A DNA stretch of 64,000 bases from a virus (IMGVR_UViG_3300028591_000093:16765-80764), one strand, 5' to 3'; counted from the first letter of the stretch, positions 3,945-60,595 are shown. The notes: generated from the sequence alone by a model not told the origin. Numbers and translations: made by a program.

Positions 3945-4257
3945 CTAATAAGAGGTTTTGTTCTGCAACAACCATATATCCAGACTCAAAGAATACAGGT
4001 CTAGCTCCTCTCATATCAAATAAAACATTGTCACCTTTGTGGACAACTTCACATTTATTACCAACAGCAAGAACCTTGCCCCATTTAAAGGGTTGTTCCT
4101 TATAATCAAGCTGACCACTGTCAGGGTTCTCAAACTCACCACCTGTTATTTCAAATTCATCCTCAGCAGCTTTCTTCTCATAAGGATTGAATTCATAAGG
4201 GTCAACTAAAATGTTAGTGAACACTGGAATAAAATTTTCTGTCATATCATTAAGCAT
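3922..4257 (-). CDS. groS: GroES-like co-chaperonin (Cpn10) with expanded mobile loop
   Basis: IPVFTNILVDPYE then loop then WGKVLAVGNKCEVVHKGDNVLFD matches GroES IRPLHDRVIVKR...GEVLAVGNG...VKVGDIVIF. Lies directly upstream of the GroEL-like gene. Confidence 0.55.
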   Translation of the reverse strand: MLNDMTENFIPVFTNILVDPYEFNPYEKKAAEDEFEITGGEFENPDSGQLDYKEQPFKWGKVLAVGNKCEVVHKGDNVLFDMRGARPVFFESGYMVVAEQNLLLVDNNPNV

Positions 4258-5707
4258 TAAGAATTAAACAAGAGCATGTTAAAATAATAGAGGCTGTATT
4301 TACAGCATTCTCTAAAGAAGTCTTAACAACTTCATATGGGTCTATCACACCTTCATTATATAAGTCATTTACCCATTTTCTAGTTTTAAAGTTATAACCT
4401 TGCCAATCTTGTGGGCATGGAATAACTTGTTCATTAGGACCAAAACAGTTCTTATATAATATATAATAAGGAGTAGTCAATACTTCTCTCAAGTACTTCA
4501 ATTGACTACCTAAATTAGTAGAAGCATCAAAAAGTGCTGTTCCACCACCAGGAAGAACTCCTCCTCTTAAAGCGGCTCTAGTAGCACCTACAGCATCTTC
4601 TACTCTATCCAATCTTTCTTTAACTTCTATCTCAGAGTAACCACCTACATAAATAGTGGCAATGCCTGCTGTGAAGTTAGCAAGTCTCTTTCTCTGGAAT
4701 TCTAAGTCTCCTTCATCAAGATTACCTTTTTCTAAAAGTCCTTGAATTGCTGTTACTTTTTCAGATACAGCTTGTTCATTACTTTTATATCCTACAAAGG
4801 TACAAGTATCAGCAGTAGCTACAACTTTATCACAATAAAGTGTATCTCCAAGAATATCTCTAATATCAGAAAGCAGAATACTTCTCTGGATACCAAAGTT
4901 AGGAGCAACTACCATACAGGAGTCTAACTTATGTAAGTTATTTAAAAGATTTATTTTTATCTCAGAATCAAAATCTGGAGCAATAAGCAATAGAGCTTTT
5001 TTCTTTCTGAGAGCTTCATTAGCTACCTCAGCAATTTTGGTAATCTCACTAATCTTTGTATCTGAGATGTATATCATTACATTGTTAAGTACACAAGTGT
5101 TTTCAGCAGTATTTACAAATCTGGAATCAAAGTAACCATTGTCAAATTGAAAACCTTCAGAGAATTCAATACCATCTGAGTTAGTTTTAGATTTCTCAAA
5201 CTTAACAATTCCATTCTTGCCTACTTTCTTAAAAGCTTCAGCAACAAGTGCACCTATTTTAATATCGTTGTTTGCAGAAAGTGTAGCAACTTTAGTTAAG
5301 TCATCAAGAGTAATATCTCTTTTATGTTCTTTTAACCAATCTACAACTTTCTTGCAATCTTCTTGTAAATCTCTTTGTATCTCTATAGGATTTTCCTTAC
5401 TATTACAAAGACTATTTACAATCTTGTTAGAAAGAATGGTAGCAGTAGTGCTACCATCTCCAATATCATTAGAAGTTTTTCTTGAAATATCTCTAACTGC
5501 ATCTATACCCATTTGAACAAAAGGATTCTCATGAGTAACATAAGTTGCTACAGTACTACCATCTTTAGTAACATGTAAATGTCTGCCAAGCTTAATCATT
5601 ACATTCTTACCACTTGGACCATAAGTAGCAGCAACACAATTAGAAACTAAATTTACACCTTTAATTAAAGATTCTCTGCATTCTTCAGTAAATTGTACAT
5701 TTTCCAT
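4250..5707 (-). CDS. groL: GroEL-like chaperonin (Cpn60), shortened C-terminus
   Basis: 485 aa. ATYGPSGKNVMIKL...VTKDGSTVA...NDIGDGSTTATILS parallels GroEL TLGPKGRNVVL...ITKDGVSVA...NDAAGDGTTTATVLA. Confidence 0.75.
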   Translation of the reverse strand: MENVQFTEECRESLIKGVNLVSNCVAATYGPSGKNVMIKLGRHLHVTKDGSTVATYVTHENPFVQMGIDAVRDISRKTSNDIGDGSTTATILSNKIVNSLCNSKENPIEIQRDLQEDCKKVVDWLKEHKRDITLDDLTKVATLSANNDIKIGALVAEAFKKVGKNGIVKFEKSKTNSDGIEFSEGFQFDNGYFDSRFVNTAENTCVLNNVMIYISDTKISEITKIAEVANEALRKKKALLLIAPDFDSEIKINLLNNLHKLDSCMVVAPNFGIQRSILLSDIRDILGDTLYCDKVVATADTCTFVGYKSNEQAVSEKVTAIQGLLEKGNLDEGDLEFQRKRLANFTAGIATIYVGGYSEIEVKERLDRVEDAVGATRAALRGGVLPGGGTALFDASTNLGSQLKYLREVLTTPYYILYKNCFGPNEQVIPCPQDWQGYNFKTRKWVNDLYNEGVIDPYEVVKTSLENAVNTASIILTCSCLILNA

Positions 5708-35307: not shown

Positions 35308-36519
35308 ATGAAAAATGTAAAAATATATGCAAAAACAGTTGAAGATGAGGCAATGTTACAAATTCAAAACATGTCTTTATCTGATGCTTATGGAGAATGT
35401 CCTGTAAGAATAATGCCTGATTGTCATGCAGGTGCAGGATGTACAATTGGTACTGTAATAGGTATTAAAGATAGAGTTGTACCTAATACAGTTGGAGTAG
35501 ATATAGGATGTGGAATGTTGGTTGTTCCTTTAGGTAATATTGAGATTGATTTAGCAGCTCTAGATAATTTCATTAAAACTGAAATACCTTCTGGATTCAA
35601 TATCAATGAACAGTTTCTTGGTAAAAGTTTTTATCATCCTAGTACACTTACTCAATTTAAATGTCAAGAAGTTATAGATGCTGATATGGCTTTAAAGTCT
35701 ATTGGTAGTCTTGGAGGAGGTAATCATTTTATTGAAGTTGATATAAATGAAAATGATGAAAAATTTCTTGTAATTCATACTGGTAGTAGAAATCTTGGTG
35801 TAAGAGTATGTAAGTATTATCAAGAAAAAGCTATAAAGAGTTGTAAAGCAAAGAGAACTGATTTTATAGAAATTATTAACAGTCTTAAAGAACAAGGAAG
35901 ACAGTCTGAAATCAATGCTACTCTTGCACAAATTAAAGCAACTCAATCACCTTTCAATGCTGAATTGGCATATCTTGAAGGTAAAGACCTTGAGGATTAT
36001 CTTAATGATATGAGATTATGTCAAGGATATGCTTCTTGTAATAGAAGAGCAATTGCTATTAGAATTCTTGATTTCTTAGGACTTTCTAATCTTCTTTCTG
36101 ATTTCTTAGAAGGACATGATAAATCTTTTACAACTATTCATAATTATATTGATTTACCACATAAGATTCTTAGAAAAGGTGCTGTGAGTGCACTTAATGG
36201 AGAAAAGCTTATTATTCCTATTAACATGAGAGATGGTTCTCTTATCTGTATAGGTAAAGGTAATCTTGATTGGTTGTATTCTGCACCTCATGGAGCAGGT
36301 AGACTTATGTCTAGAAAGAAAGCAAAAGAAAGTCTTAAAGAAGAGGACTTTATTGAAGCAATGAAAGGTATTTATACAACTACAGCAACTAAAGATACTA
36401 TTGATGAAGCACCTATGGTATATAAACCGATGGATGAAATCATGGAGTGTATCAAAGATACTGTAGATGTTGTAGATATTATTAAACCTATATATAATTT
36501 TAAAGCAGCAGAGCAATGA
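35308..36519 (+). CDS. rtcB: RtcB-family RNA 3'-phosphate/2',3'-cyclic phosphate ligase
   Basis: 403 aa. RIMPDCHAGAGCTIG and VGVDIGCGM match the RtcB metal-binding motifs. Confidence 0.75.
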   Translation: MKNVKIYAKTVEDEAMLQIQNMSLSDAYGECPVRIMPDCHAGAGCTIGTVIGIKDRVVPNTVGVDIGCGMLVVPLGNIEIDLAALDNFIKTEIPSGFNINEQFLGKSFYHPSTLTQFKCQEVIDADMALKSIGSLGGGNHFIEVDINENDEKFLVIHTGSRNLGVRVCKYYQEKAIKSCKAKRTDFIEIINSLKEQGRQSEINATLAQIKATQSPFNAELAYLEGKDLEDYLNDMRLCQGYASCNRRAIAIRILDFLGLSNLLSDFLEGHDKSFTTIHNYIDLPHKILRKGAVSALNGEKLIIPINMRDGSLICIGKGNLDWLYSAPHGAGRLMSRKKAKESLKEEDFIEAMKGIYTTTATKDTIDEAPMVYKPMDEIMECIKDTVDVVDIIKPIYNFKAAEQ

Positions 36520-36968
36520 TAAATAATCAAATTGATAAACTTATCATGGAGGCTATGAAGTCTCATGAGAATGTAAGAAAAGAGGCTTTAAGAGCAATTA
36601 AAGCTGCTTTCTTATTATGGAGAACTCAGAAAGAAAATGTTAATAAACCATTTACTGATGAAGTAGAAATTCAAATCATCAAGAAAATGGTAAAACAAAG
36701 AGAGGATTCTATTGAGCAATTTAAACAGGCTAATAGAATGGATTTAGTTGAGGCAGAAGAAGCACAACTTAAAGTTCTTAAAGAGTTTTTACCAGTAGAA
36801 GCAACTAGGGAAGACATTTTGAAATGTTTCAATGATGTAATTGGACAAGATGGTTTTGAGCCTGTAAAGAAGAACATGGGTGTCATTATCAAAACAATAA
36901 AAGGTTCACTTCCTAATGCTGATGGCAAATTAGTTGCAGAAGTTGTACAAGAATTTTTAAACAAATGA
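36516..36968 (+). CDS. GatB/YqeY-domain protein
   Basis: 150 aa. NVRKEALRAIKAAFLL and overall size and pattern match YqeY. ATGA overlap with rtcB. Confidence 0.5.
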   Translation: MINNQIDKLIMEAMKSHENVRKEALRAIKAAFLLWRTQKENVNKPFTDEVEIQIIKKMVKQREDSIEQFKQANRMDLVEAEEAQLKVLKEFLPVEATREDILKCFNDVIGQDGFEPVKKNMGVIIKTIKGSLPNADGKLVAEVVQEFLNK

Positions 36969-37561: not shown

Positions 37562-38001
37562 TTACATTCATTATACCTATTCAAAGTATATCTGACATAA
37601 TAACCAATAGTTCATCTGAACTCTTTGTAGCATTTGCAAATCCTGAACAAGAATTTACTAGTACTATTGTTGCTAAGAAATTACAGGAAATTTGGGATAA
37701 TGATGATAAAAAGAGAGAGGAGCTTTGGAACCAATACTGTAGTAGAGGTAAAAATAACTGGGATAAATATGATGAAGCTTTATACAAGTTAGGACTTGAT
37801 GAGTCTTCAGGTGATGCAGCAGAATGTGAAGTCACTACACTTTCTTATAAAGATATTGCTCATGATGTTAAAAGACATTTCAGGGGTAATGTTGATAAGA
37901 AAAATGGTTTGTTCTTACAAATTAGAATTGACCATAATAGAAGACATTCAATTGATTGGATTAGAAATAATCTGTCTGTTGTATCTAGTTACAGTTGTTA
38001 A
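37558..38001 (+). CDS. hypothetical protein, paralog of 36965-37561
   Basis: Starts MITFIIPIQSISDIITNSSSELFVAF. ATGA overlap. Confidence 0.4.
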   Translation: MITFIIPIQSISDIITNSSSELFVAFANPEQEFTSTIVAKKLQEIWDNDDKKREELWNQYCSRGKNNWDKYDEALYKLGLDESSGDAAECEVTTLSYKDIAHDVKRHFRGNVDKKNGLFLQIRIDHNRRHSIDWIRNNLSVVSSYSC

Positions 38002-38894
38002 TTATGAAAGATTTTACTCACTTTGGTATTAAACAGAGGAATTTTTCAGAATATAACTATAATGCTATATGGCAAAATCTAAAAACAGTAAGATTAGGAC
38101 AAGGAGTAGCTCAAGAGTTACCACCTATCTGTTCTGAGTTTTATGATGTAAGTCTTGGTACTAAGTGTAATCTAGAATGTCCTTTCTGTTATACTAATGC
38201 ATTACATACAGGTGTATTCTATAAGGATGTATGTGAGAAAGCAAAAAAGTTCTTTGGAGAGATGGATGAAAATTCCAAACCTTTTCAAATAGCAATAGGG
38301 AGTGAAGGTGAGCCAACAATTCATCCTGAATTCATTCCTTTCTTACAAACTATATATAACTTAGGAATAGTACCTAACTACACTACCAATGGTATAACTC
38401 TAGCTTCTGAAGACAATAAAGAATTGTTGGAAGCAACAGAGAAGTACTGTGGTGGTGTAGCTGTAAGTGCAAACACTTGGAATGAAAATATCAATAAGAC
38501 TTGGAAGAAAGCTGTTGATAATTTAAAAGGTATAGACATTAACATTAACATTCATTACATAATTTCAGATAAAGCTTCTGTTGACAAATTTGTCAGTGAA
38601 GTATATCCATATGTAAATGATATATTGTATTTTGTTCTATTACCACTTATGCCTTCTGGTAGAAGTGTTTGCAAATATACACAAGAAGAATTTGAGTATT
38701 TGTTAAGTAAAAATTTAAATTGGTCTAAAATAGCTTTTGGAGCACATTTCTATGACTTACTTAAACAACAAAATAAAATCAAATGCTGGTTGTATCCTCC
38801 TGAGAGTTTCTCAAAGAATTTAATTTTGGGAAATCCTATAAAAATAACAAAAAGTTCTTTTCACAAAGAGCCAATCTGGCAAAAAGATGTATGA
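37995..38894 (+). CDS. radical SAM enzyme (299 aa)
   Basis: CNLECPFC gives the Cx3Cx2C cluster motif. GSEGEPTIHPEF...TTNGITL is the SAM-binding glycine-rich motif. Confidence 0.55.
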   Translation: MLIMKDFTHFGIKQRNFSEYNYNAIWQNLKTVRLGQGVAQELPPICSEFYDVSLGTKCNLECPFCYTNALHTGVFYKDVCEKAKKFFGEMDENSKPFQIAIGSEGEPTIHPEFIPFLQTIYNLGIVPNYTTNGITLASEDNKELLEATEKYCGGVAVSANTWNENINKTWKKAVDNLKGIDININIHYIISDKASVDKFVSEVYPYVNDILYFVLLPLMPSGRSVCKYTQEEFEYLLSKNLNWSKIAFGAHFYDLLKQQNKIKCWLYPPESFSKNLILGNPIKITKSSFHKEPIWQKDV

Positions 38895-39551: not shown

Positions 39552-40397
39552 ATGAAATATAGGTTTTTAGCTAAAGAAACAACTGAAGCTCTTATAAAGT
39601 ATTTACAATCTTGGTTTGAACAAAATGGACCAGGATGTAATGCTGTAATAGGTATATCAGGAGGTAAAGACTCTACTATTGCAGCAGCACTCTGTGTAAA
39701 AGCTTTAGGTGCTGAAAGAGTCATAGGTGTATTGTTGCCAAATGGTGTTCAACATGATTTCAATATAGCACAGAAAGTGTGTGAAACTCTTGGAATCAAG
39801 AACCTGTCTATTCCTATTGGGACTATCTTTGAAGAATTCCAGGATAGATATAAGATGGCAAATGTACACAATACTCTTAATGAAGTAACTGAGCAAGCAA
39901 GAATTAACTTAGCTCCTAGAATTAGGATGACTATGTTAAGATATGTAGCACAAGCAAATAATGGCAGATTGATTAACACTTCTAACTTATCTGAAGACTG
40001 GGTTGGTTATGCAACTGTTGATGGAGATAGTGCAGGAGATGTATCACCATTATGTATGCTTACTGTACAAGAAGTAAAAGCTATTGGACATGAACTTGGA
40101 CTTCCTGCTGAACTTGTTGAGAAAGTTCCTGAAGATGGACTTGTTGGTACATCTGATGAACAAACACTTGGAATCACTTACAAAGATATAGACACCTATA
40201 TCAGAGAAGGTGAAGGAAGTGCTGAAGTAATTGAAAAGATTAACAAAAAGTTTGAAGCAAACAAGTTCAAGATTTATAGAATGGCAAGTATGCCTTGCTT
40301 CTGGCCTGAAATTGAAATGTTGTTTGACTTAACTGAAAAGCCTACCAATGTAGAGATAATGTCTCTAGGTATGGCTAAAGACCCAAGATTCCAATGA
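39552..40397 (+). CDS. nadE: NH3-dependent NAD+ synthetase
   Basis: 281 aa. VIGISGGKDSTIAAAL gives the PP-loop SGGxDS. Overall NadE pattern. Confidence 0.7.
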   Translation: MKYRFLAKETTEALIKYLQSWFEQNGPGCNAVIGISGGKDSTIAAALCVKALGAERVIGVLLPNGVQHDFNIAQKVCETLGIKNLSIPIGTIFEEFQDRYKMANVHNTLNEVTEQARINLAPRIRMTMLRYVAQANNGRLINTSNLSEDWVGYATVDGDSAGDVSPLCMLTVQEVKAIGHELGLPAELVEKVPEDGLVGTSDEQTLGITYKDIDTYIREGEGSAEVIEKINKKFEANKFKIYRMASMPCFWPEIEMLFDLTEKPTNVEIMSLGMAKDPRFQ

Positions 40398-40945
40398 GAA
40401 AGGTTCTTATTTTGATTGATTGTCAAAATGATTTCTGTGCACAAGGTGGTGTTTTGGCAAATAAAGAGTCTATTGCAATTGCAAAAGACATTGCTAAAAC
40501 ATTACCTGAGCTTATTTCTGAAAAAGGTTTTGACTATATTCTTGCTACAAGAGATACTCATTATAGGCAATCTTATGATGTCACAGTAGAAGGTAAACAT
40601 TTACCTGTTTTACATTGTATATGTGAAACTGCTGGTTGGTGTCTAAGAGATGATATTATGGAAGCTCTTGACAATTGTCAAGTTCCTAAAAAGTTTATAA
40701 ACAAACATACATTTGGTTATAACAATTGGGAACAAATAATTGGTTCAGATAAGTCAGAAATAAGAGAGTTCTATTTAGTAGGATTCTGTACTGATATTTG
40801 TGTTGTTACCAATGCTCTTGTTCTCAAGACATTATACCCTAATTCAGAAGTGTATGTCTATGAAGGACTGACAGCAGGTGTAACTCCTGAAAAGAAAGAG
40901 GCAGCTATTGAGACAATGAGAAGCTGCCACATAAACATTATTTGA
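40394..40945 (+). CDS. pncA: nicotinamidase/pyrazinamidase (isochorismatase fold)
   Basis: LILIDCQNDF (Asp), GFCTDICV (catalytic Cys), 183 aa. ATGA overlap with nadE. Confidence 0.65.
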   Translation: MRKVLILIDCQNDFCAQGGVLANKESIAIAKDIAKTLPELISEKGFDYILATRDTHYRQSYDVTVEGKHLPVLHCICETAGWCLRDDIMEALDNCQVPKKFINKHTFGYNNWEQIIGSDKSEIREFYLVGFCTDICVVTNALVLKTLYPNSEVYVYEGLTAGVTPEKKEAAIETMRSCHINII

Positions 40946-41020
40946 TATGGACAATATTGTTGAGATGGCAAGTTTTATTGCAGGTGTAACAGTTGGTTTC
41001 GCTTCAATGTTTCTTTTCTT

Positions 41021-41230
41021 ATGAGTGAAAATGCTAAAACAAATATAACTATAAGTTTCAATCTTCCACTTATTTTAACAATTGCTTTCTTTATTGCTAA
41101 GGTGACAGAGAAAATTGATTGGAATTGGTGGTGGGTATTTAGTCCTTTGTGGATTACTGGAACTTTAGTTGTTTTAATGTTTATAATCTACATAATTATT
41201 CAATGCTTTTCGTCAACAAAATACCTGTAA
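41021..41230 (+). CDS. small membrane protein (69 aa)
   Basis: ORF track. Two TM helices. Confidence 0.35.
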   Translation: MSENAKTNITISFNLPLILTIAFFIAKVTEKIDWNWWWVFSPLWITGTLVVLMFIIYIIIQCFSSTKYL

Positions 41231-42033
41231 AGGTAGAACATTTCCAGGATGGTACTCAAAAGATAAATATGCCAGATTTTGGTGTAAATGCTTTTCATAT
41301 AGTATGGAAGTATCATTGTGATGAAGAATTAGTCACATTGATATTTGTTTGTGGTTATCTCAGAGATAATTATCAAGACTGTACTATATCTCTGGAAATG
41401 TTGTATGTTCCTAATGCTAGAATGGACAGAGTAGAAGAAAGAGGAGATGTCTTTACCCTTAAGTATTTCTGCAATGTTATTAACAGTTTACAGTTTGAAA
41501 GTGTAACAGTTTTTGATACTCATTCAAAAGTAACTGATGCTCTAGTTGATAGGATGTGTAAAATACCAACTGATGTATCATTGAAAGAAGCCCTTGATGT
41601 TATACATAGTGGGATGTTTGATGATAAATTCAGTAAGGTTACAATTGTATTTCCTGATAGAGGTGCTTATGATAGATACAGTTCTCTTGAAATCTTAAAG
41701 CCTTTTAGAAAGGTAATAGGAAACAAATCAAGAGACTGGAAAACTGGCACTTTGCAAGACCAGGAGCTATATGGAGTAGATACATTGGAGACAGGTATTC
41801 CTGTTCTGATTATTGATGACATATTATCCTCAGGTGGTACCATCTGTAAGACTATTGCAAATATCAGGGAAAAAGTGAATTGTCCAATTTATGTATATGC
41901 TTCCCACTGTGAGAATAAACTTATAGAAGATAATACAGAGAATTGGCAATACATTCTAAGTAATGTAACAAAATTGTTTACAACAAATGGGATATATTCT
42001 CATGAAATTGAAAAGGTTGTGATATTATGGTAG
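41203..42033 (+). CDS. prs: ribose-phosphate pyrophosphokinase (PRPP synthetase)
   Basis: FQDGTQKINM, YVPNARMDRVEERG (compare Prs YARQDRK), VFDTHS (compare DLHA) and PRPP-binding VLIIDDILSSGGTICK. Start taken at the internal ATG 41203. Confidence 0.6.
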   Translation: MLFVNKIPVKVEHFQDGTQKINMPDFGVNAFHIVWKYHCDEELVTLIFVCGYLRDNYQDCTISLEMLYVPNARMDRVEERGDVFTLKYFCNVINSLQFESVTVFDTHSKVTDALVDRMCKIPTDVSLKEALDVIHSGMFDDKFSKVTIVFPDRGAYDRYSSLEILKPFRKVIGNKSRDWKTGTLQDQELYGVDTLETGIPVLIIDDILSSGGTICKTIANIREKVNCPIYVYASHCENKLIEDNTENWQYILSNVTKLFTTNGIYSHEIEKVVILW

Positions 42034-43208
42034 CAATAAACCCTGCAAGTATGTTGGATAATGACCTCTATAAGTTTAGCATGAGCTATGCTTATATGAA
42101 GTTATTTCCTGAAGCAGAGGGTACATTTGTTTTCTGTGATAGAGGTAAAACAGAGTATACTGCTAAATTTGTAACCGCTTTGCAACAAGAGTTACATAGA
42201 CTGGCAGAAAGAATGTTGTCTAATGCAGAGAGACAATGGTGTGTACAAAACATACCATACATTCCTGAGTGGTATTGGGAATGGTTAGAGTCTTTCTATT
42301 TTAATCCAAACTTAATTAAACTTTCCCTTGAGAAAGATGGTGAGTTGAAGATTGAAGTTACAGATAAACTTTATAAAGTTACTCTGTATGAGGTACCTAT
42401 TCTCTATACAGTTGCAGAAACATACTATAAAATCTATGGTAAATCTCTAACTGTTGACCAGTATCAAGAGATATGTAGAAAAACTGAAGAGAAATGTAAG
42501 ATTGCTGAAGAAGCAGGATTTAAATTCTCTGAGTTTGGTACCAGAAGAAGATATAGTTATGAAGTACAAGATACAGTTGTAGCTGTTTGTAAGAACTCTA
42601 CATCCTGCGTCGGTACTTCAAATGTACATCTTGCAATGAAATATGACATGAAACCTATTGGAACTGTAGCACATGAATGGGTAATGTTTCATGGTGCTAT
42701 GTATGGTTACAATGAGGCTAACTACATGGCATATAAAAACTGGGTAAAGGTTTATGATGGCAATCTTGGTATTGCTTTAACTGATACCTATACTTCTAAA
42801 GTCTTTTTCAAGAATTTTTCTTTACAACATGCAAAATTGTTTGATGGTATAAGACAAGATTCTGGAGATGAGAAAGACTTTGTTGAGAGAGCACTAGTTA
42901 GATATGATGAGTTAGGTATCAACCCACTCACAAAAACTATAGTGTTCTCTAATGCTTTGGATTTTCCAAAAGCTGCTCAAATTGCTGAATACTGTAAAGG
43001 AAAGATAAAAGCTTCCTTTGGTATAGGCACTAATCTTACCAATGATATTGAAGGTGTACAGCCTAGAAATATTGTCATGAAGTTAATGCATTGCAGAATG
43101 AACCCAAGACAAGAATGGGTAAATTGTGTAAAGATTTCTGATGACATTGGTAAAGTAATGGGAGCAGATGAGGAAGTAAAAACTGCTATTTATAAATTAG
43201 GTCTATGA
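42027..43208 (+). CDS. pncB: nicotinate phosphoribosyltransferase
   Basis: 393 aa. N-terminal LDNDLYKFSM and EFGTRRR signature of PncB. Confidence 0.65.
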   Translation: MVAINPASMLDNDLYKFSMSYAYMKLFPEAEGTFVFCDRGKTEYTAKFVTALQQELHRLAERMLSNAERQWCVQNIPYIPEWYWEWLESFYFNPNLIKLSLEKDGELKIEVTDKLYKVTLYEVPILYTVAETYYKIYGKSLTVDQYQEICRKTEEKCKIAEEAGFKFSEFGTRRRYSYEVQDTVVAVCKNSTSCVGTSNVHLAMKYDMKPIGTVAHEWVMFHGAMYGYNEANYMAYKNWVKVYDGNLGIALTDTYTSKVFFKNFSLQHAKLFDGIRQDSGDEKDFVERALVRYDELGINPLTKTIVFSNALDFPKAAQIAEYCKGKIKASFGIGTNLTNDIEGVQPRNIVMKLMHCRMNPRQEWVNCVKISDDIGKVMGADEEVKTAIYKLGL

Positions 43209-43681
43209 GAAATTTTCCAGTAGAACATGAAGGAAAAACCTACTGGATAAGTAGGTCTGTAGCAGTTGCAGGTTTCATCTTCACCAAAGATAGTCAAGGA
43301 AATTGGTTAGTTCTTGCAAATAAGAGAGGACCAGGTTGTCCTGATAATGTTGGTAAATGGGTTTGTCCTTGTGGATACCTAGATTATGATGAAACCCTCA
43401 AAACAGCTATTATAAGAGAAGTTTATGAGGAAACAGGAGTTCTTGTACCTGCTGATAAACTTCAATTTGCAGGTATAGATGATGTACCTGAAGGTAGACA
43501 AAACTTAACAGTAAAATTTACTGCATATCTTGGTTCTGATTCACCTGCTGTGAAGATGTTATCTAAAGAGCATTGTGAACCAGATGAGGTAGATGAAGTT
43601 ATGTGGATACCAGTAGCTAAAGCAGGTGAGTATGATTGGGCTTTTGGACATTATGAACTAATTAGGAGTTTTGTACCATGA
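43205..43681 (+). CDS. Nudix hydrolase (ADP-ribose/NADH pyrophosphatase-like)
   Basis: Nudix box GYLDYDETLKTAIIREVYEETGV. ATGA overlap. Confidence 0.65.
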   Translation: MRNFPVEHEGKTYWISRSVAVAGFIFTKDSQGNWLVLANKRGPGCPDNVGKWVCPCGYLDYDETLKTAIIREVYEETGVLVPADKLQFAGIDDVPEGRQNLTVKFTAYLGSDSPAVKMLSKEHCEPDEVDEVMWIPVAKAGEYDWAFGHYELIRSFVP

Positions 43682-44265
43682 ACCCAAAAGTAGCTCATCT
43701 ATTTCTTACAGACAAGTGCACTAATCAGTGTCCTATGTGCTGTAACAACAACTACACTGTAGACAGTATTCCTTTTATAACAAAAGAGGAGTTGTCTACA
43801 GTGGAAACTGTTTGTTTAACAGGTGGTGAACCTTTTCTTCTAGATAATCTTTATGGGATTGTAAATGTAATAAGTTCTTTTGCTAAGAATATCTATGTTT
43901 ATACTTCAGGTTATGAGTTACTCTATTACTTGAAAAAACATACCTTACCTTGTATAACTGGAATTTCCATTTGTCCAAAAGGTAAAAAAGATTGGGATGC
44001 ATTACAAGAACTTATACACAATACAAGAGCTAGATTGAGGATTTCAGAATGTAGTAATAGACTATATGTTCTTTTAAAACAAGAAGATAGAGCTAACTAT
44101 GTTACTGAAACTGATATTAGTTTGAGGGCAATTGAACATTTTGCTGAAGAGTTAAATGCTAAGATATTGTTCAGAACTTGGCTTCCTGAAATTACATCTC
44201 CAGATGGAGAGATATTTAGAAGAGTTAATTTAGAGGATTTAAAACAATGGAAATCAGAACTATAA
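43678..44265 (+). CDS. small radical SAM protein (QueE/NrdG-size)
   Basis: CTNQCPMC Cx3Cx2C motif and LTGGEPFL SAM motif. 195 aa. ATGA overlap. Confidence 0.5.
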   Translation: MNPKVAHLFLTDKCTNQCPMCCNNNYTVDSIPFITKEELSTVETVCLTGGEPFLLDNLYGIVNVISSFAKNIYVYTSGYELLYYLKKHTLPCITGISICPKGKKDWDALQELIHNTRARLRISECSNRLYVLLKQEDRANYVTETDISLRAIEHFAEELNAKILFRTWLPEITSPDGEIFRRVNLEDLKQWKSEL

Positions 44266-44879
44266 GAGGAAGAGCTGTCTTATATGGAGGTTCTTTCAAT
44301 CCTATACATAATGGACATATAGAAGCAATACAAATGCTCTTAGATAGAAGAGATACCAATGGTATGTACTATTATAATAAGGTAATTGTAGCTCCAAGCT
44401 TTGCAAGTCCTTTTAAGGAGTTTAATGTGTGTTTTGCAGACAGATTTGAAATGGCTGCAACTTCTATAAAAAGAGTAATAGGAGATGAAAGAGTAGAAGT
44501 CATCTTTGATAGTAATGCATCGCCATTATTTCAATATACTTACTATTTCCTAAAGCATCTATCTCTTAAGTATTCTGATTATTCCATTGATTTAGCTATA
44601 GGTGCAGATTGTCTTGCACAAATAACTAAATGGGCATGTTTTAAAGACATACTTTATCAGTTTGATATTGTAGTAATACCTAGAGAAGGAGTTGAAATGA
44701 AAGTTCCTGAGGGATTAACTCTAGCTAGAAGTATTACTAAAATGTCAGAAATTCCTTCTAATATAAGTTCAACCTATATCAGACAATGTATTGATGAGTG
44801 TAATCCAGAATGGAAAACACTTGTTCCTAAATATGTTGCTGATTATATTCAAAAACATCATCTATATGACTGTAGTTAA
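44247..44879 (+). CDS. nadD: nicotinate-nucleotide adenylyltransferase
   Basis: YGGSFNPIHNGH (HxGH nucleotidyltransferase motif) and C-terminal ISSTYIR (NadD ISSTxIR motif). 210 aa. Confidence 0.7.
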   Translation: MEIRTIRGRAVLYGGSFNPIHNGHIEAIQMLLDRRDTNGMYYYNKVIVAPSFASPFKEFNVCFADRFEMAATSIKRVIGDERVEVIFDSNASPLFQYTYYFLKHLSLKYSDYSIDLAIGADCLAQITKWACFKDILYQFDIVVIPREGVEMKVPEGLTLARSITKMSEIPSNISSTYIRQCIDECNPEWKTLVPKYVADYIQKHHLYDCS

Positions 44880-45372
44880 TCGGACAGGAAATCTATTAGA
44901 TTCAGAAGCACAGATAATCATGCACCAAGTAAATGATGCTGGTGTAATGGGGAGTGGAGTTGCTGCTGCTATTGCACACAAGTGGCCTTATGTACAAGAA
45001 CAATACACTGTTCTTATGCAACAAGGTGGCCTTAAACTAGGTGTTGTACAGGTTGTTGAGCATGAACAATGTGTAGAAGGACAGGAAGAACCAAACTATC
45101 CTTACATTGCAAATTTGTGTGCTCAAGACTTATACCAAAAAGAGCATTCTTTCTTGAGTATAGGATGTCCTACAAGTTATGATGCTTTGTGGATGTGCCT
45201 AGTTAAATTGGCAAAAATCTGTGAAGAAAACAAAATAAGAACAATTGCAATGCCTTATCTCATGAGTTCTTGTAGAGGTGGTGCTAACTGGAATGTAGTA
45301 CATTCTATGGTTCTAGCAGCATTTGAAAACCTTGATATTACTATTGAGATTTGGCAGTTGCCAAAAGAATAG
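44866..45372 (+). CDS. macro-domain protein (ADP-ribose binding or hydrolysing)
   Basis: IMHQVNDAGVMGSGVAAAIAHKWP resembles the macro-domain NAANxxLxGGGGVxGAI motif. Start at the internal ATG 44866 just before the nadD stop. Confidence 0.55.
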   Translation: MTVVNRTGNLLDSEAQIIMHQVNDAGVMGSGVAAAIAHKWPYVQEQYTVLMQQGGLKLGVVQVVEHEQCVEGQEEPNYPYIANLCAQDLYQKEHSFLSIGCPTSYDALWMCLVKLAKICEENKIRTIAMPYLMSSCRGGANWNVVHSMVLAAFENLDITIEIWQLPKE

Positions 45373-45641
45373 CAATGATAACAATAAAGGTAGTATTTGT
45401 TCAGCAACCAGTACCTGAACAACAAGCTTCACGGCTAAGGCAGTATACTTTTGCAGCTGAAACTGAAGAAGGTATGGAACTACATGTAGGAGATTGCATA
45501 CAATCTCCAAGATATGATTCCCTACTTCAAGTTTGTGAAATAATCAATGAGCAGTATCTGTTCTATAGCCCTATAACAGGAGCTTTGAGCAGAGAAGCTG
45601 GACCAGGTTATTTGCCTTTAAAGTTGCTAAAAGTTCATTGA
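45351..45641 (+). CDS. hypothetical protein (96 aa)
   Basis: ORF track. Confidence 0.35.
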   Translation: MAVAKRIAMITIKVVFVQQPVPEQQASRLRQYTFAAETEEGMELHVGDCIQSPRYDSLLQVCEIINEQYLFYSPITGALSREAGPGYLPLKLLKVH

Positions 45642-46189
45642 AATATTGCTGGCTCATAGCCTTTCTGTAAAGAAACAAGCATACATGAGCCTGTCCATAG
45701 GGACTGCACCCAGTCATAGGGTAAAGAAAAAATATATGAATACTGTGCTCTCCTAACAGGAAATTTTAATACTTATTTGGTGTATCTTGAATTAGTAATT
45801 CCCTATTACAAAAGGGGACTAAGGATGGTGTGCCCAGGAGTCCTGGTAGAGTTTAAAAGAACAAGTAGCCTTGTAGTTCCTGCCAAAAGAAAAAAATCCA
45901 TAGCCCAAAAGTACCTAATATATTTTAGCGGGGTAAGCAAATAATGTATGGCTATGAGAAAGTTAAGGTAACTCACTATTGGCAATAGTGAAGTTTGTAT
46001 AGTAAAGTGCCAATTGTTATAAGTATATCTCCAGACATATTAAAAAGTAAGGCTGTGTTGAGCTTTATTTCTTCTGTAAAGTGACAGTGCAGAGATGTGC
46101 TACTGGGGTTTGCAGTTATGCTTCTGCATAGGCTCTGGGATAACAATTTATAGGGTAGAGGGATTAGTTTCTCTCTGCCCTTCTATTAT

Positions 46190-54194: not shown

Positions 54195-54779
54195 ATGAAT
54201 TACATATTTGGAATAGATATTGATGAAGTACTTAGGAGTACTCTATCAAAGATGTTAGAGGTGTATAATAGAGAATTCAAAGACAATAAGACAATGGATG
54301 ATGTTCATAGTTTTGTTGTTGAGGAAAGTTTTCCAAGAATTCTTACTGAAACTGGTATAAAAGCTGGAGATTGGTTCTTCCAATTACACAGTAAGGAAAT
54401 CTTTGAAGATGCTGCTTTACTGCCTCATGTTGTAGAAGCAATAGAGATTCTCAAGAAGTTTGGTAAGATAGTCATTATATCCTACCAGAAAACACCTCTT
54501 AATAAAGAACAAGCTATTGAATGGCTTGACAAACATGGGATTACCTATGATGGATTATGTTTCCTTAAAGATAAATCATTGCTTCATGTAGATTATCTTA
54601 TTGATGATAATGATTGGAACTTTAAAGGAAGTACTGCTCAATATGGTGTACTTATTAAAGCACCATATAATAAAAATGTAGATGTTTCAGAACTCTGTAC
54701 ACACGGAGATTGTATGGACATCTACAGATTTGATACTTTGCATGATTTTGCTAAATGGTTTGAAATGTGTCATGAGTAA
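54195..54779 (+). CDS. HAD-superfamily phosphatase, 5'(3')-deoxyribonucleotidase-like
   Basis: HAD motif I FGIDIDEVL (DxDxV). Size (194 aa) and pattern are similar to the NT5C family. Confidence 0.45.
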   Translation: MNYIFGIDIDEVLRSTLSKMLEVYNREFKDNKTMDDVHSFVVEESFPRILTETGIKAGDWFFQLHSKEIFEDAALLPHVVEAIEILKKFGKIVIISYQKTPLNKEQAIEWLDKHGITYDGLCFLKDKSLLHVDYLIDDNDWNFKGSTAQYGVLIKAPYNKNVDVSELCTHGDCMDIYRFDTLHDFAKWFEMCHE

Positions 54780-60103: not shown

Positions 60104-60595
60104 ATGAAAGGTGCTGATTTATTAACTGCAAAAAGAATAGGAGAATTCCTTAAAAGTAAGTCCTGGACTATAGCAACAGCTGAATCTTGTACGGCAGGAG
60201 GTATATCTAATGCTTTAGCAAGAGTTGAAGGAGCTTCCCAATATCTCAAAGGTGGTGTTGTGTCCTATACTAATGAGATTAAAGAGAAAATCTTATGGGT
60301 AAATCCTAAAACAATTGAGAATTTTGATGTTGTTAGTCTTGAAGTAGCTCAAGAAATGGCTAGTTCAATTAGAAACCTTTACAATACAGATGTAGGAGTT
60401 GGAATTACAGGGTATGTAGGTCAAACTGGTGGTAATAGTAAGGTTCCTAATGGTACAGTTTGGATTAGTGTTAAATGTGAAGGTATTCAGAATACAGTTA
60501 GATGTAGTGTATGTAATTCCAGAAATGAAAACATAGATGAAATGATAGGAACTGCATTGAACTTAATTCTGGAAACACTTGAGTGTACTAACTAA
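60104..60595 (+). CDS. pncC: CinA C-terminal domain protein, NMN deamidase
   Basis: TIATAESCTAGGISNALARVEGASQYLKGGVVSYTNEIKEKIL matches the CinA/PncC core (ATAESCTGG...pGsS...gGvVaYsneaK). 163 aa. Confidence 0.6.
   Translation: MKGADLLTAKRIGEFLKSKSWTIATAESCTAGGISNALARVEGASQYLKGGVVSYTNEIKEKILWVNPKTIENFDVVSLEVAQEMASSIRNLYNTDVGVGITGYVGQTGGNSKVPNGTVWISVKCEGIQNTVRCSVCNSRNENIDEMIGTALNLILETLECTN

Follow-up and report, generated by a model that had tools for sequence, protein, structure and literature searches.

The phage system NARP1 (Adps and Namat) and its variant NARP1-AP, which adds Adpp (Osterman et al. 2024, 2026), recycle ADP-ribose (ADPR) and nicotinamide (Nam). The operon described here, encoded in a 64,000-nucleotide stretch of viral DNA (the window), shares this logic and likewise combines a PRPS-fold kinase of the Adps clade with a macro domain, but Namat is absent and PncB, NadD, NadE, and PncA are present instead; whereas NARP1 uses a single ligation, the window operon would proceed through NaMN and NaAD, with either ADPR or ribose-5-phosphate (R5P) as the kinase substrate. 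Macro add-ons to NARP1 were reported in 2026 (Osterman et al.). NARP2 (Nampt and Nmnat) resembles the window operon in converting a pyridine base and PRPP to a mononucleotide that is passed to an adenylyltransferase, and in the company of an ADPR-type Nudix with that adenylyltransferase; the window operon differs in using nicotinate, with PncB in place of Nampt, in needing PncA and NadE, and in its separate Nudix gene. In the NARP2 of Vibrio phage KVP40, the adenylyltransferase NatV bears a Nudix domain. NARP3 (PnuC and NadR; Sci Adv 2026) is also a phage NAD+ restoration pathway but imports nicotinamide riboside and has no component in common with the window operon. The bacterial pyridine nucleotide cycle (PncA, PncB, NadD, and NadE, plus PncC) has the same enzyme families and reaction order, and the window PncB and NadD pass NCBIfam equivalog cutoffs; the window operon differs in being a tight phage-encoded unit with ADPR-processing genes that would feed PRPP. 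Also close are the pncB-nadD-nadE clusters of gut jumbo phages, for which a role against NAD+ depletion was suggested (Li et al., Microbiome 2024) in a purely bioinformatic study whose main text names just these three genes and does not contain the word Nudix. These clusters, also from gut phages and with predicted Bacteroidota hosts, reduce the novelty over described phage systems that a first-pass annotation of the window had claimed. The window differs from them by its Adps-clade kinase and its crAss-like phage; the cassette of which its PncB, Nudix, and NadD are part occurs on 243 IMG/VR contigs. We found no description in the literature of NARP1 parts joined to the nicotinic-acid (Preiss–Handler) route.

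The window encodes a TerL, a GroEL-like protein, and RtcB. The TerL shares 44% identity with its counterpart in MT835470.1, which encodes PncA-PncB-NadE-NadD-Nudix, and ∼30% with Crassvirales TerL; by TerL placement, the phage is a crAss-like gut phage. The eight co-directional ORFs of the first-pass annotation are real, all lying on the + strand at the coordinates given below with no internal stops, and every motif quoted for them was found. The genes had been described as mostly joined by ATGA overlaps: three of the seven junctions are of this kind, but at three others the genes overlap further (by 7, 14, and 19 nt), and PncA and the Adps-like gene have no direct junction, the gap being occupied by an ORF of 69 aa (41021..41230, + strand) that is predicted to contain two transmembrane segments. 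This ORF overlaps the start of the Adps-like gene by 28 nt, where the ATG at 41203 is a more likely start than the GTG at 41149. It is found at the equivalent position in two loci from related phage(s), L094 and L179 (43 to 44% identity), and many IMG/VR loci have a homolog upstream of PncB; by this conservation, the unit is a nine-gene operon with the 69-aa membrane ORF as its ninth member. A 96-aa ORF directly 3′ of the macro gene (45351..45641, + strand), 81% identical in L179 and without a match in a Pfam search, may be the unit's final gene; the first strong hairpin with a T-run on the + strand after the macro gene and this ORF is at 46152-46181. The argument that an absence of TAG codons fits early expression proved baseless: TAG stops end two module genes (Adps-like and macro), and TAG readthrough adds no length to the long ORFs.

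The gene order of the window operon is kept in L094 and L179 at 36 to 82% protein identity, and because both preserve it, the clustering exceeds chance; in one related contig, the order is intact from PncA to macro, with NadE cut by the contig end. The two best-conserved genes are Adps-like (80%) and PncB (80 to 82%), followed by NadE (64 to 70%), Nudix (68%), the radical SAM gene (67 to 69%), macro (66%), and PncA (55%). For NadD, identity to its counterpart at the equivalent position in L179 is only 36%, a sign that the allele was swapped in place.

Four operon genes encode credible Preiss–Handler enzymes, as judged from family profiles and motifs. NadE (39552..40397, + strand; 281 aa, single domain), an NH3-dependent NAD+ synthetase predicted to convert NaAD to NAD+, matched NAD_synthase PF02540 (161 bits), TIGR00552 (155 bits; cutoff 64), and phrog_11189 (186 bits) and has the motif SGGKDS at residue 36. 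The PncA-like nicotinamidase (40394..40945, + strand; 183 aa), predicted to convert Nam to nicotinate, matched Isochorismatase PF00857 (59.7 bits; cutoff 27) and contains LIDCQNDF and GFCTDICV. Its best solved relatives are the PncA proteins of P. horikoshii and M. tuberculosis, and in alignments to these, the catalytic residues (Asp9, Lys104, Cys136) and those that bind the metal (Asp54, His56, His74) are all present. PncB (42027..43208, + strand; 393 aa), a type-I nicotinate phosphoribosyltransferase with the motifs DLYKFSM and FGTRRR, matched NAPRTase (203 bits), NAPRTase_N (95 bits), TIGR01514 (408; cutoff 270), and NF003704 (417.7; cutoff 379), and its predicted reaction is nicotinate plus PRPP (plus ATP) to NaMN. 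NadD (44247..44879, + strand; 210 aa), a nicotinate-mononucleotide adenylyltransferase predicted to convert NaMN to NaAD, contains GGSFNPIHNGH and ISSTYIR and matched CTP_transf_like (46 bits) and TIGR00482 (114.7; cutoff 112.45). A distal gene (60104..60595, + strand) was correctly recognized as PncC by its CinA domain (PF02464, 156.6 bits) and is predicted to convert NMN to NaMN; no PncC homolog was detected within 10 kb in ∼160 related loci of the two cassettes described below.

Profile searches agreed with seven of the eight original family assignments; the exception was “Prs” (41203..42033, + strand; 276 aa). Although YVPNARMDRVEERG and VLIIDDILSSGGT are present, this protein scored 68.6 against TIGR01251 (cutoff 113), compared with 96.5 for FADO Adps and 422.7 for E. 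coli Prs, and reached no Prs family cutoff. It matched phrog_619 (185 bits) and was far closer to phage Adps-type proteins (7e-37) than to solved Prs structures (2e-8), five cellular Prs were split from all phage sequences in a phylogenetic tree (bootstrap 0.995), and its nearest viral relatives adjoin Namat-like genes in ∼75 of 80 loci. Neither the N-terminal segment found in cellular Prs nor the C-terminal α11-α12 module is present; loss of the latter is a signature of the Adps family according to the Adps structure paper. Sequence, phylogeny, and the gene context of its relatives thus place the protein in the phage clade of Adps, the NARP1 ADP-ribose pyrophosphokinase, and reject an ancestry among cellular-type PRPP synthetases. 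Its catalytic core is conserved, and since the catalytic residues are common to true Prs, substrate choice is not readable from them; the predicted product is an activated ribose-1-pyrophosphate, formed by conversion of either ADPR to ADPR-PP or R5P to PRPP. The protein sits on a long branch, and of 65 positions that its Namat-linked relatives conserve, 9 are lost, the large PP-loop residue among them.

There is a sizable chance, if short of even, that the protein nonetheless acts as a plain PRPP synthetase in a self-contained Preiss–Handler pathway mechanistically unrelated to NARP1, with Nudix acting first on ADPR. Its PP loop, DDILSSGGT, resembles the archaeal Prs sequence DDIISTGGT and has Ser210 where all 32 Namat-linked relatives have the larger Y, F, R, or K; conserved sites of the Adps-like gene have changed faster in the window lineage; and no Namat or NAMPT-family gene was found anywhere in the 64-kb window. 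The Nudix protein, altered in the window lineage at 1 of 38 conserved positions, hardly departs from those of phages without Adps and so probably still takes plain ADPR. Against this reading stand the Adps-like ancestry and the absence of the N-terminal segment and the α11-α12 module.

The window operon is, by the gene context of its relatives, a chimera, drawn from two phage cassettes that are both widespread. The first, PncA–Adps–Namat-like–(macro)–NadE, occupies ∼75 of the 80 nearest viral loci of the Adps-like gene, and the second, PncB–NadE–NadD–Nudix, is common in gut phages. The window PncB is 51 to 61% identical to the PncB of 243 viral contigs in IMG/VR; among 83 PncB loci scored (80 from the scan of viral contigs and three fetched earlier), NadE was present in 73, Nudix in 68, and NadD in 55, and an Adps-clade kinase alongside PncB occurred only in the window lineage. 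The window NadE scored 190 to 250 bits against NadE of the first cassette and 45 to 65 bits against that of the second. The best explanation is that NadE, PncA, the Adps-like kinase, and macro came from a NARP1-type cassette in which the Namat ligase was replaced by PncB, Nudix, the radical SAM gene, and NadD of a Preiss–Handler gut-phage cassette. The earlier statement that the module uses neither NARP1 nor NARP2 therefore falls on the NARP1 side, the kinase being of the Adps-like clade and NadE, PncA, and macro being nearest to the Adps-Namat-type cassette.

The first cassette itself appears to be adapted to nicotinate. At the position of the Asp that is hydrogen-bonded to the amide (D219 of human NAMPT, D215 of SPbetaL1 Namat), its Namat-like proteins have Ala or Ser in 62 of 62 unique sequences, whereas six canonical NARP1 operons of cultured phages, including the experimentally studied FADO, Bas63, and ICP1, have Asp or Glu. 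PncA and/or NadE are present in 61 of the 62 Ala/Ser-type loci and in none of the six canonical operons, and NAMPT D219S is listed as a switch of substrate affinity. Because Ala/Ser replaces the amide-reading Asp of NAMPT and Namat, we predict that the Namat-like enzyme takes nicotinate as its substrate. The same chemistry in the window, with the Adps-like kinase producing ADPR-PP, PncB joining it to nicotinate to give NaAD directly, NadE amidating, and NadD and Nudix relegated to a side route, would accord with the Adps-like and PncB genes being translationally coupled (overlap ATGGTAG) and forming the most conserved pair. We consider it very unlikely: PncB is of a different subfamily from Namat, and compared with phage PncBs that have no Adps link, and whose bearers must draw on host PRPP, it keeps 108 of 113 columns conserved at ≥95% and 141 of 149 at 90%, with no extra loop and no added adenine-clamp element. 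NadD and Nudix are moreover kept under selection, NadD having been swapped in place.

The Nudix hydrolase (43205..43681, + strand; 158 aa) matched PF00293 (59.8 bits), and its Nudix box is intact; 16 residues past the box, it has a Pro that is also found in most aligned family members. Top solved matches to its family profile were NrtR (3gz8 and 3gz5), 2fml, and NadM-Nudix 2qjt, with NCBIfam matches also to NadM-Nudix; the best solved relatives are thus ADP-ribose-binding Nudix proteins of NAD metabolism, in keeping with the link to ADPR originally proposed. We predict an ADP-ribose pyrophosphatase yielding AMP and R5P from ADPR, and possibly a second activity yielding AMP and PRPP from ADPR-PP, a cleavage to PRPP that NudC performs in vitro.

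The macro domain protein (44866..45372, + strand; 168 aa, ATG start) belongs to the family first assigned (PF01661, 26.8 bits; cutoff 22). Its model is of the DarG/TARG1/Poa1p structural class (Foldseek: DarG 3e-13, TARG1 1e-10, Poa1p 5e-9; query-normalized TM ∼0.7 to 0.75). The leading reading, by analogy, is an Adpp-like ADPR-1″-phosphate phosphatase supplying ADPR, ahead of the earlier suggestion that it frees ADPR from conjugates or cyclic derivatives: the macro protein Adpp inside NARP1 operons dephosphorylates ADPR-1″-phosphate (Osterman et al. 2026), and accessory genes supplying ADPR are tolerated in those operons. The activity may be different or weakened, given that 16 of 47 family-conserved positions are altered in the window lineage and that the loop of residues 91-99 is poorly modeled. 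DarG macrodomains being the best solved matches, and orphan antitoxin-like enzymes against DarTG being known in phages, the locus could also be an anti-defense island for which the NAD genes are mere neighbors. Macro would then undo DNA ADP-ribosylation of the DarT type, and nucleotide immune signals would be destroyed by Nudix or by the radical SAM enzyme, whose nearest folds belong to proteins acting on nucleotides. This is improbable. A Gln aligns with the DarG catalytic Lys, the NCBIfam DarG score was 69 bits (cutoff 250), and the protein has no DarT-binding domain; in 42 of 80 scanned loci, a macro homolog stands between the Namat-like and NadE genes, and this fixed placement, together with the pairing of Nudix and PncB in 68 of 83 loci, indicates a functional link to NAD synthesis.

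The small radical SAM enzyme (43678..44265, + strand; 195 aa) is real, as had been proposed, despite no Pfam match and only weak NCBIfam matches: CX3CX2C begins the search motif at residue 14, a TGGEPF motif is conserved in 37 homologs, and its AlphaFold2 model (pLDDT 91) best matched solved BlsE, a viperin-like enzyme, and MoaA (TM ∼0.5). A homolog adjoins PncB in two loci (L099 and L175), and distant homologs occur on phage contigs without NAD genes.

Taken together, homology and gene context, from which every step of the following chain is drawn, make it reasonably probable that this crAss-like gut phage operon, hybrid in origin, rebuilds NAD+ from nicotinamide and ADPR by a deamidated route. 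PncA would convert Nam to nicotinate, and macro would generate ADPR by dephosphorylating ADPR-1″-phosphate, which RES-type NAD+ phosphorylases produce. The Adps-like pyrophosphokinase and Nudix would jointly convert ADPR to PRPP, either with Nudix first (ADPR to AMP and R5P, then R5P to PRPP) or with the kinase first (ADPR to ADPR-PP, then Nudix cleavage to AMP and PRPP); the two orders have the same net reaction and are rated about equal. PncB would then form NaMN from nicotinate and PRPP, NadD would convert NaMN to NaAD, and NadE would amidate NaAD to NAD+. Conversion of Nam and ADPR to NAD+ through NaMN and NaAD, the net chemistry advanced in the first-pass annotation, is still the best reading. 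Counting against the proposed chain are the radical SAM enzyme, which like the conserved 69-aa membrane protein and 96-aa ORF has no step in it, the altered conserved positions of the macro domain, and the long branch and lost positions of the Adps-like kinase.

The operon might instead be an auxiliary metabolic module, providing more NAD+ for replication enzymes or for a salvage-deficient host with no anti-defense role, since NAD pathways of gut jumbo phages complement host pathways and phages encode many NAD-consuming enzymes (Li et al. 2024). This is unlikely: three of the genes (Adps-like, Nudix, and macro) handle ADP-ribose species and one handles nicotinamide, which are the cleavage products of NADases rather than ordinary precursors, and the related NARP1 parts have been validated as counter-defense. 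The locus reads, as first proposed, as a phage operon for NAD+ salvage and reconstitution whose inputs are NADase products, and, by its likeness to NARP1, NARP2, and NARP3, its purpose would be counter-defense.

The eight open reading frames (ORFs) of the module (39552–45372) are found at the positions given in the first-pass annotation. All are encoded on the + strand, none has an internal stop, and every motif that the annotation quoted is present in them. The domain assignments were checked by profile searches of the window ORFs, which supported NadE (PF02540, 161 bits; TIGR00552, 155 bits against a cutoff of 64; PP-loop SGGKDS), PncB as an NAPRTase (TIGR01514, 408 bits, cutoff 270; NF003704, 418 bits, cutoff 379), NadD by a narrow margin (TIGR00482, 114.7 bits, cutoff 112.45; HxGH-type and ISSTxxR motifs), and the Nudix (59.8) and macro (PF01661, 26.8, cutoff 22) proteins. 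All three Preiss–Handler members, PncB, NadD, and NadE, are thus present in the window by family score. The PncA-like protein matches the isochorismatase profile (59.7, cutoff 27) and misses the NCBIfam PncA equivalog cutoff (34.8 vs. 174); alignment to 1ilw and 6a8l places the Asp-Lys-Cys triad (D9, K104, and C136) and the Asp/His/His metal site (D54, H56, and H74) on an isochorismatase fold. The distal PncC was likewise confirmed, with a CinA domain scoring 156.6 bits.

The gene junctions had been described as mostly ATGA, which is true of three of the seven; three others are longer overlaps of 7 to 19 nt, and PncA and the Prs-like gene are separated by a gap holding a 69-aa ORF with two transmembrane segments (41021–41230, +). 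This membrane ORF is kept in L094 and L179, the two IMG/VR viral loci closest to the window, and homologs precede PncB in many other IMG/VR phage loci. The Prs-like gene probably starts at ATG 41203, and the macro gene at ATG 44866. Nothing can be built on the stated lack of TAG codons in the module, two of the genes ending in TAG, and stop-codon recoding was rejected, as readthrough of TAG, TGA, or TAA leaves the long ORFs no longer. The macro stop is overlapped by a 96-aa ORF (orf96; 45351–45641, +), and the first strong terminator-like site downstream is a hairpin with a 12-bp stem and a T-rich tail (46152–46181). A σ70 promoter scan gave 31 matches, with 29.9 expected from shuffling.

The window is phage DNA encoding a large terminase (100–1722, −), a GroEL-like chaperonin (phrog_5725, 347 bits; 4250–5707, −), and RtcB. 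The terminase is 44% identical to that of MT835470.1, a 117-kb human fecal phage contig, and ∼30% identical to Crassvirales terminases. At a strand switch near 17–18 kb, the GC skew reverses as well. Genes for an RNA ligase, RtcB, and a YqeY-like protein (35308–36968) are found just upstream of the module, and MT835470.1 has an RNA-repair gene (HAD_SAK_2/YqeY) close to its own NAD module, so that RNA-repair genes lie near NAD genes in both phages. At the DNA level, cultured phages gave just short matches of 66–71% over PncB and no closer relative; Bacteroides phage DAC17 was rejected as a relative of the module, carrying the canonical Namat-Adps pair only.

The order NadE-PncA-TM-Prs-like-PncB-Nudix-radical SAM-NadD-macro-orf96 is identical in L094 and L179, which derive from related phage(s). 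Protein identities to the window are 80% for the Prs-like protein, 80–82% for PncB, 68% for Nudix, 67–69% for radical SAM, 66% for macro, 64–70% for NadE, 55% for PncA, and 81% for orf96 (in L179); the conserved order and identities therefore argue that the operon as a whole is under selection. Because NadD (44247–44879) is only 36% identical to its L179 counterpart (L179:4206–4838), with flanking genes at 66–82% and the nucleotide alignment interrupted exactly across NadD, the NadD allele appears from these sequences to have been swapped in place between the two phages.

The product of the gene first annotated as Prs (41203–42033) does not group with the cellular PRPP synthetases: it scores below the family cutoff, lacks both terminal segments, and falls outside cellular Prs in a phylogenetic tree. 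With TIGR01251 (cutoff 113), the window protein scored 68.6 bits, compared with 96.5 for the Adps of phage FADO, from a NARP1 operon validated by deletion, 106.6 for that of KoopaTroopa, and 422.7 for E. coli Prs. It matched the phage "ribose-phosphate pyrophosphokinase" family phrog_619 at 185 bits and 1,423 phage records (best 7e-37), and solved Prs structures at just 2e-8. No solved Adps structure was matched in the PDB; published residue numbers of ICP1 Adps served as the reference instead. We constructed a neighbor-joining tree from six Adps proteins of canonical NARP1 operons in cultured phages (FADO, KoopaTroopa, Bas63, phiSA012, ICP1, and DAC17; NARP1 of FADO, Bas63, and ICP1 has been studied experimentally), 32 metagenomic homologs, and five cellular Prs sequences (two archaeal fragments and the enzymes of E. 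coli, B. subtilis, and human). Cellular Prs split from all phage sequences with a bootstrap of 0.995, and the window clade was monophyletic at 0.855; the tree gave no firm order among the phage subclades. The window protein is devoid of the N-terminal segment and the C-terminal α11-α12 module seen in E. coli, B. subtilis, and human Prs. Loss of the α11-α12 module is a signature of the Adps family according to the Adps structure paper. The catalytic-core residues are conserved in the window protein, but these are common to Prs too. On these sequence grounds, we assign the kinase to the phage Adps clade and set it apart from cellular Prs.

An IMG/VR scan whose query was an alignment of the Prs-like family gave 80 loci; a scan of viral contigs with the single Prs-like protein had found none. 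About 75 of the 80 encode PncA, an Adps-like protein, a Namat-like NAMPT-family protein, and NadE, often with a macro domain (cassette 1; L003 and L006–L086, for example L006:959–5106); macro homologs sit between the Namat-like gene and NadE in 42 of the 80. PncB, NadD, and the window-type Nudix are absent from all of these ∼75 loci. A scan with PncB identified 243 viral contigs at 51–61% identity (cassette 2), from which the best 80 loci, together with three fetched earlier, were scored: NadE is encoded in 73 of these 83, the window-type Nudix in 68, NadD in 55, and PncA in at least 19. The gene order in MT835470.1 is PncA-PncB-NadE-AAA-NadD-Nudix. Among the 83, an Adps-like gene occurs only in L094, the window's own relative. 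The window NadE, PncA, and macro proteins score best against cassette 1; for its PncB, Nudix, NadD, and radical SAM proteins, the best scores are to cassette 2. The operon is therefore chimeric, with Namat replaced. A TBLASTN search of the 64-kb window with two Namat queries gave no match at E values up to 0.01. An NT5C-type 5′-nucleotidase is encoded in the window at 54195–54779, and its cassette-1 homologs either adjoin NadE (L037) or form a fusion with it (L006), which suggests that this enzyme is linked to the NAD module.

The Namat-like proteins of cassette 1 differ from those of canonical NARP1 operons at an active-site position. In SPbetaL1 Namat, an Asp, D215, forms the hydrogen bond to the amide of nicotinamide; it corresponds to D219 of human NAMPT. 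All 62 unique cassette-1 proteins have Ala (36) or Ser (26) there, and PncA and/or NadE is present in 61 of the 62 loci, whereas the six Namats of canonical NARP1 operons have Asp or Glu and are without PncA or NadE neighbors. D219S is listed as a NAMPT mutation that switches substrate affinity. From these residues and neighborhoods we infer that cassette 1 is a nicotinate-dependent NARP1, predicted to form NaAD. PncA would convert nicotinamide to nicotinic acid, the Adps-like kinase would convert ADPR to ADPR-PP, the Namat-like enzyme would ligate nicotinate and ADPR-PP, forming NaAD directly, and NadE would finish the synthesis of NAD+. Replacement of this one active-site Asp by Ala or Ser is predicted to make Namat a nicotinate ADP-ribose transferase. 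We found no literature in which Adps or Namat is described alongside NadE or PncA, and none that describes such a cassette.

In the window operon, the place of Namat is taken by PncB, which retains 108 of 113 columns with conservation of 95% or more in PncBs of phages without Adps (141 of 149 at 90%). An additional loop or clamp that could admit ADPR-PP was sought and none was found, and PncB most likely still uses PRPP, judging by its sequence. The Nudix protein has an intact Nudix box (residues 57–78) and a Pro at +16, a position common to most aligned family members; the top solved matches of its family profile are NrtR (3gz8 and 3gz5), 2fml, and NadM-Nudix (2qjt). A Pro 16 residues after the box reportedly marks ADP-ribose pyrophosphatases, a rule said to go back to Dunn and colleagues in 1999, and the window protein is predicted to be of this type. 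The inputs of the operon are all products of NAD+ cleavage. In the best-supported chain, PncA would convert nicotinamide to nicotinic acid, the macro protein would convert ADPR-1′′-phosphate to ADPR, Nudix and the Adps-like kinase together would convert ADPR to PRPP, and PncB, then NadD, and then NadE would complete NAD+ synthesis.

Whichever of the two middle enzymes acts first, the net reaction would be the same, ADPR + ATP → PRPP + 2 AMP. The kinase may come first, making ADPR-PP from which Nudix would release PRPP, an order favored by the Adps ancestry of the kinase and by the published cleavage of ADPR-PP to PRPP by NudC in vitro. Alternatively, Nudix may come first, the kinase having reverted to ribose-5-phosphate as the substrate from which it makes PRPP. 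Favoring this order, nine of 65 positions conserved in Namat-linked relatives are changed in the window lineage's kinase, one of them the large PP-loop residue (Y/F/R/K), which is Ser210 in the window, in a loop (DDILSSGGT) close to that of archaeal Prs (DDIISTGGT); Nudix itself is unchanged but for one of 38 conserved positions in the window lineage. That an Adps-derived kinase and an ADPR-type Nudix form a previously undescribed ADPR-to-PRPP shunt, via ADPR-PP or via a kinase reverted to ribose-5-phosphate, and that the parent cassette is a nicotinate-dependent NARP1 make up a joint reading that we advance tentatively, as possible rather than probable. If true, the shunt would couple NADase debris to the Preiss–Handler route.

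The macro protein model (pLDDT 85) matched DarG (3e-13), TARG1 (1e-10), and Poa1p (5e-9), all with a query-normalized TM of ∼0.7–0.75; by fold it is of the DarG/TARG1/Poa1p class, matching both DarG-like and Poa1p-like proteins, with Poa1p a good structural match and not the best. DarG itself was rejected, as the catalytic Lys of its FPTKKHW motif aligns to Gln, the protein has 168 aa compared with a 338-position model, and it scores 69 vs. 250 bits; the C-terminal DarT-binding domain of DarG is absent from the window protein. In a 2026 preprint, Osterman et al. showed that 15% of NARP1 operons encode macro proteins with ADPR-1′′-phosphate phosphatase activity (Adpp), which let NARP1 overcome RES-domain NAD+ phosphorylases. 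As in NARP1-AP, the window macro gene lies inside an NAD+ reconstitution operon, and our leading reading, by analogy, is a putative Adpp-like ADPR-1′′-phosphate phosphatase, in a copy with 16 of 47 family-conserved positions changed.

The small radical SAM protein belongs to a real family with a conserved CX3CX2C motif, a GGE SAM-binding motif (TGGEPF), and a partial TIM-barrel fold. Its model (pLDDT 91) is nearest to BlsE, a viperin-like enzyme, and MoaA (TM ∼0.5), all generic matches to nucleotide-acting radical SAM enzymes; homologs adjoin PncB in a minority of loci and occur at other places in phage genomes too, and the proposed chain includes no step for it. Another radical SAM protein, larger than the first (299 aa; Pfam, 38 bits), is encoded at 37995–38894, and the ORF after it (198 aa) has a weak Lcl_C match; in L169, a 290-bit homolog is found ∼6 kb from PncB.

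Bacterial antiphage systems commonly end in NAD+ depletion. Three phage NAD+ repair pathways have been shown experimentally: NARP1 (Adps and Namat), NARP2 (Nampt and Nmnat), and NARP3 (PnuC and NadR). The window operon differs from NARP3 in its genes and from NARP2 in having no Nampt. With NARP1 it has the kinase clade in common, but Namat with its adenine selectivity clamp is absent and a type-I PncB adjoins instead. The first-pass annotation had therefore overstated the operon's independence from NARP1, its kinase being of the Adps clade and its NadE, PncA, and macro proteins closest to cassette 1. It had also overstated the lack of prior description, since the pncB-nadD-nadE clusters of gut jumbo phages, for which Li et al. 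(2024) proposed a counter-defense role, overlap with the operon. What is new here is the coupling of an Adps-clade kinase to PncB, a Nudix and a membrane ORF that recur, and a parent cassette predicted to depend on nicotinate.

Together, the operon and the two cassettes suggest a fourth, nicotinic acid strategy in gut phages, including crAss-like lineages, in which NARP1 parts are mixed with Preiss–Handler enzymes. This strategy predicts a kinase of Adps ancestry that works without Namat and an ADPR-type Nudix that acts as a supplier of PRPP. It bears on why phages deamidate nicotinamide and on the engineering of phages for Bacteroidota hosts.
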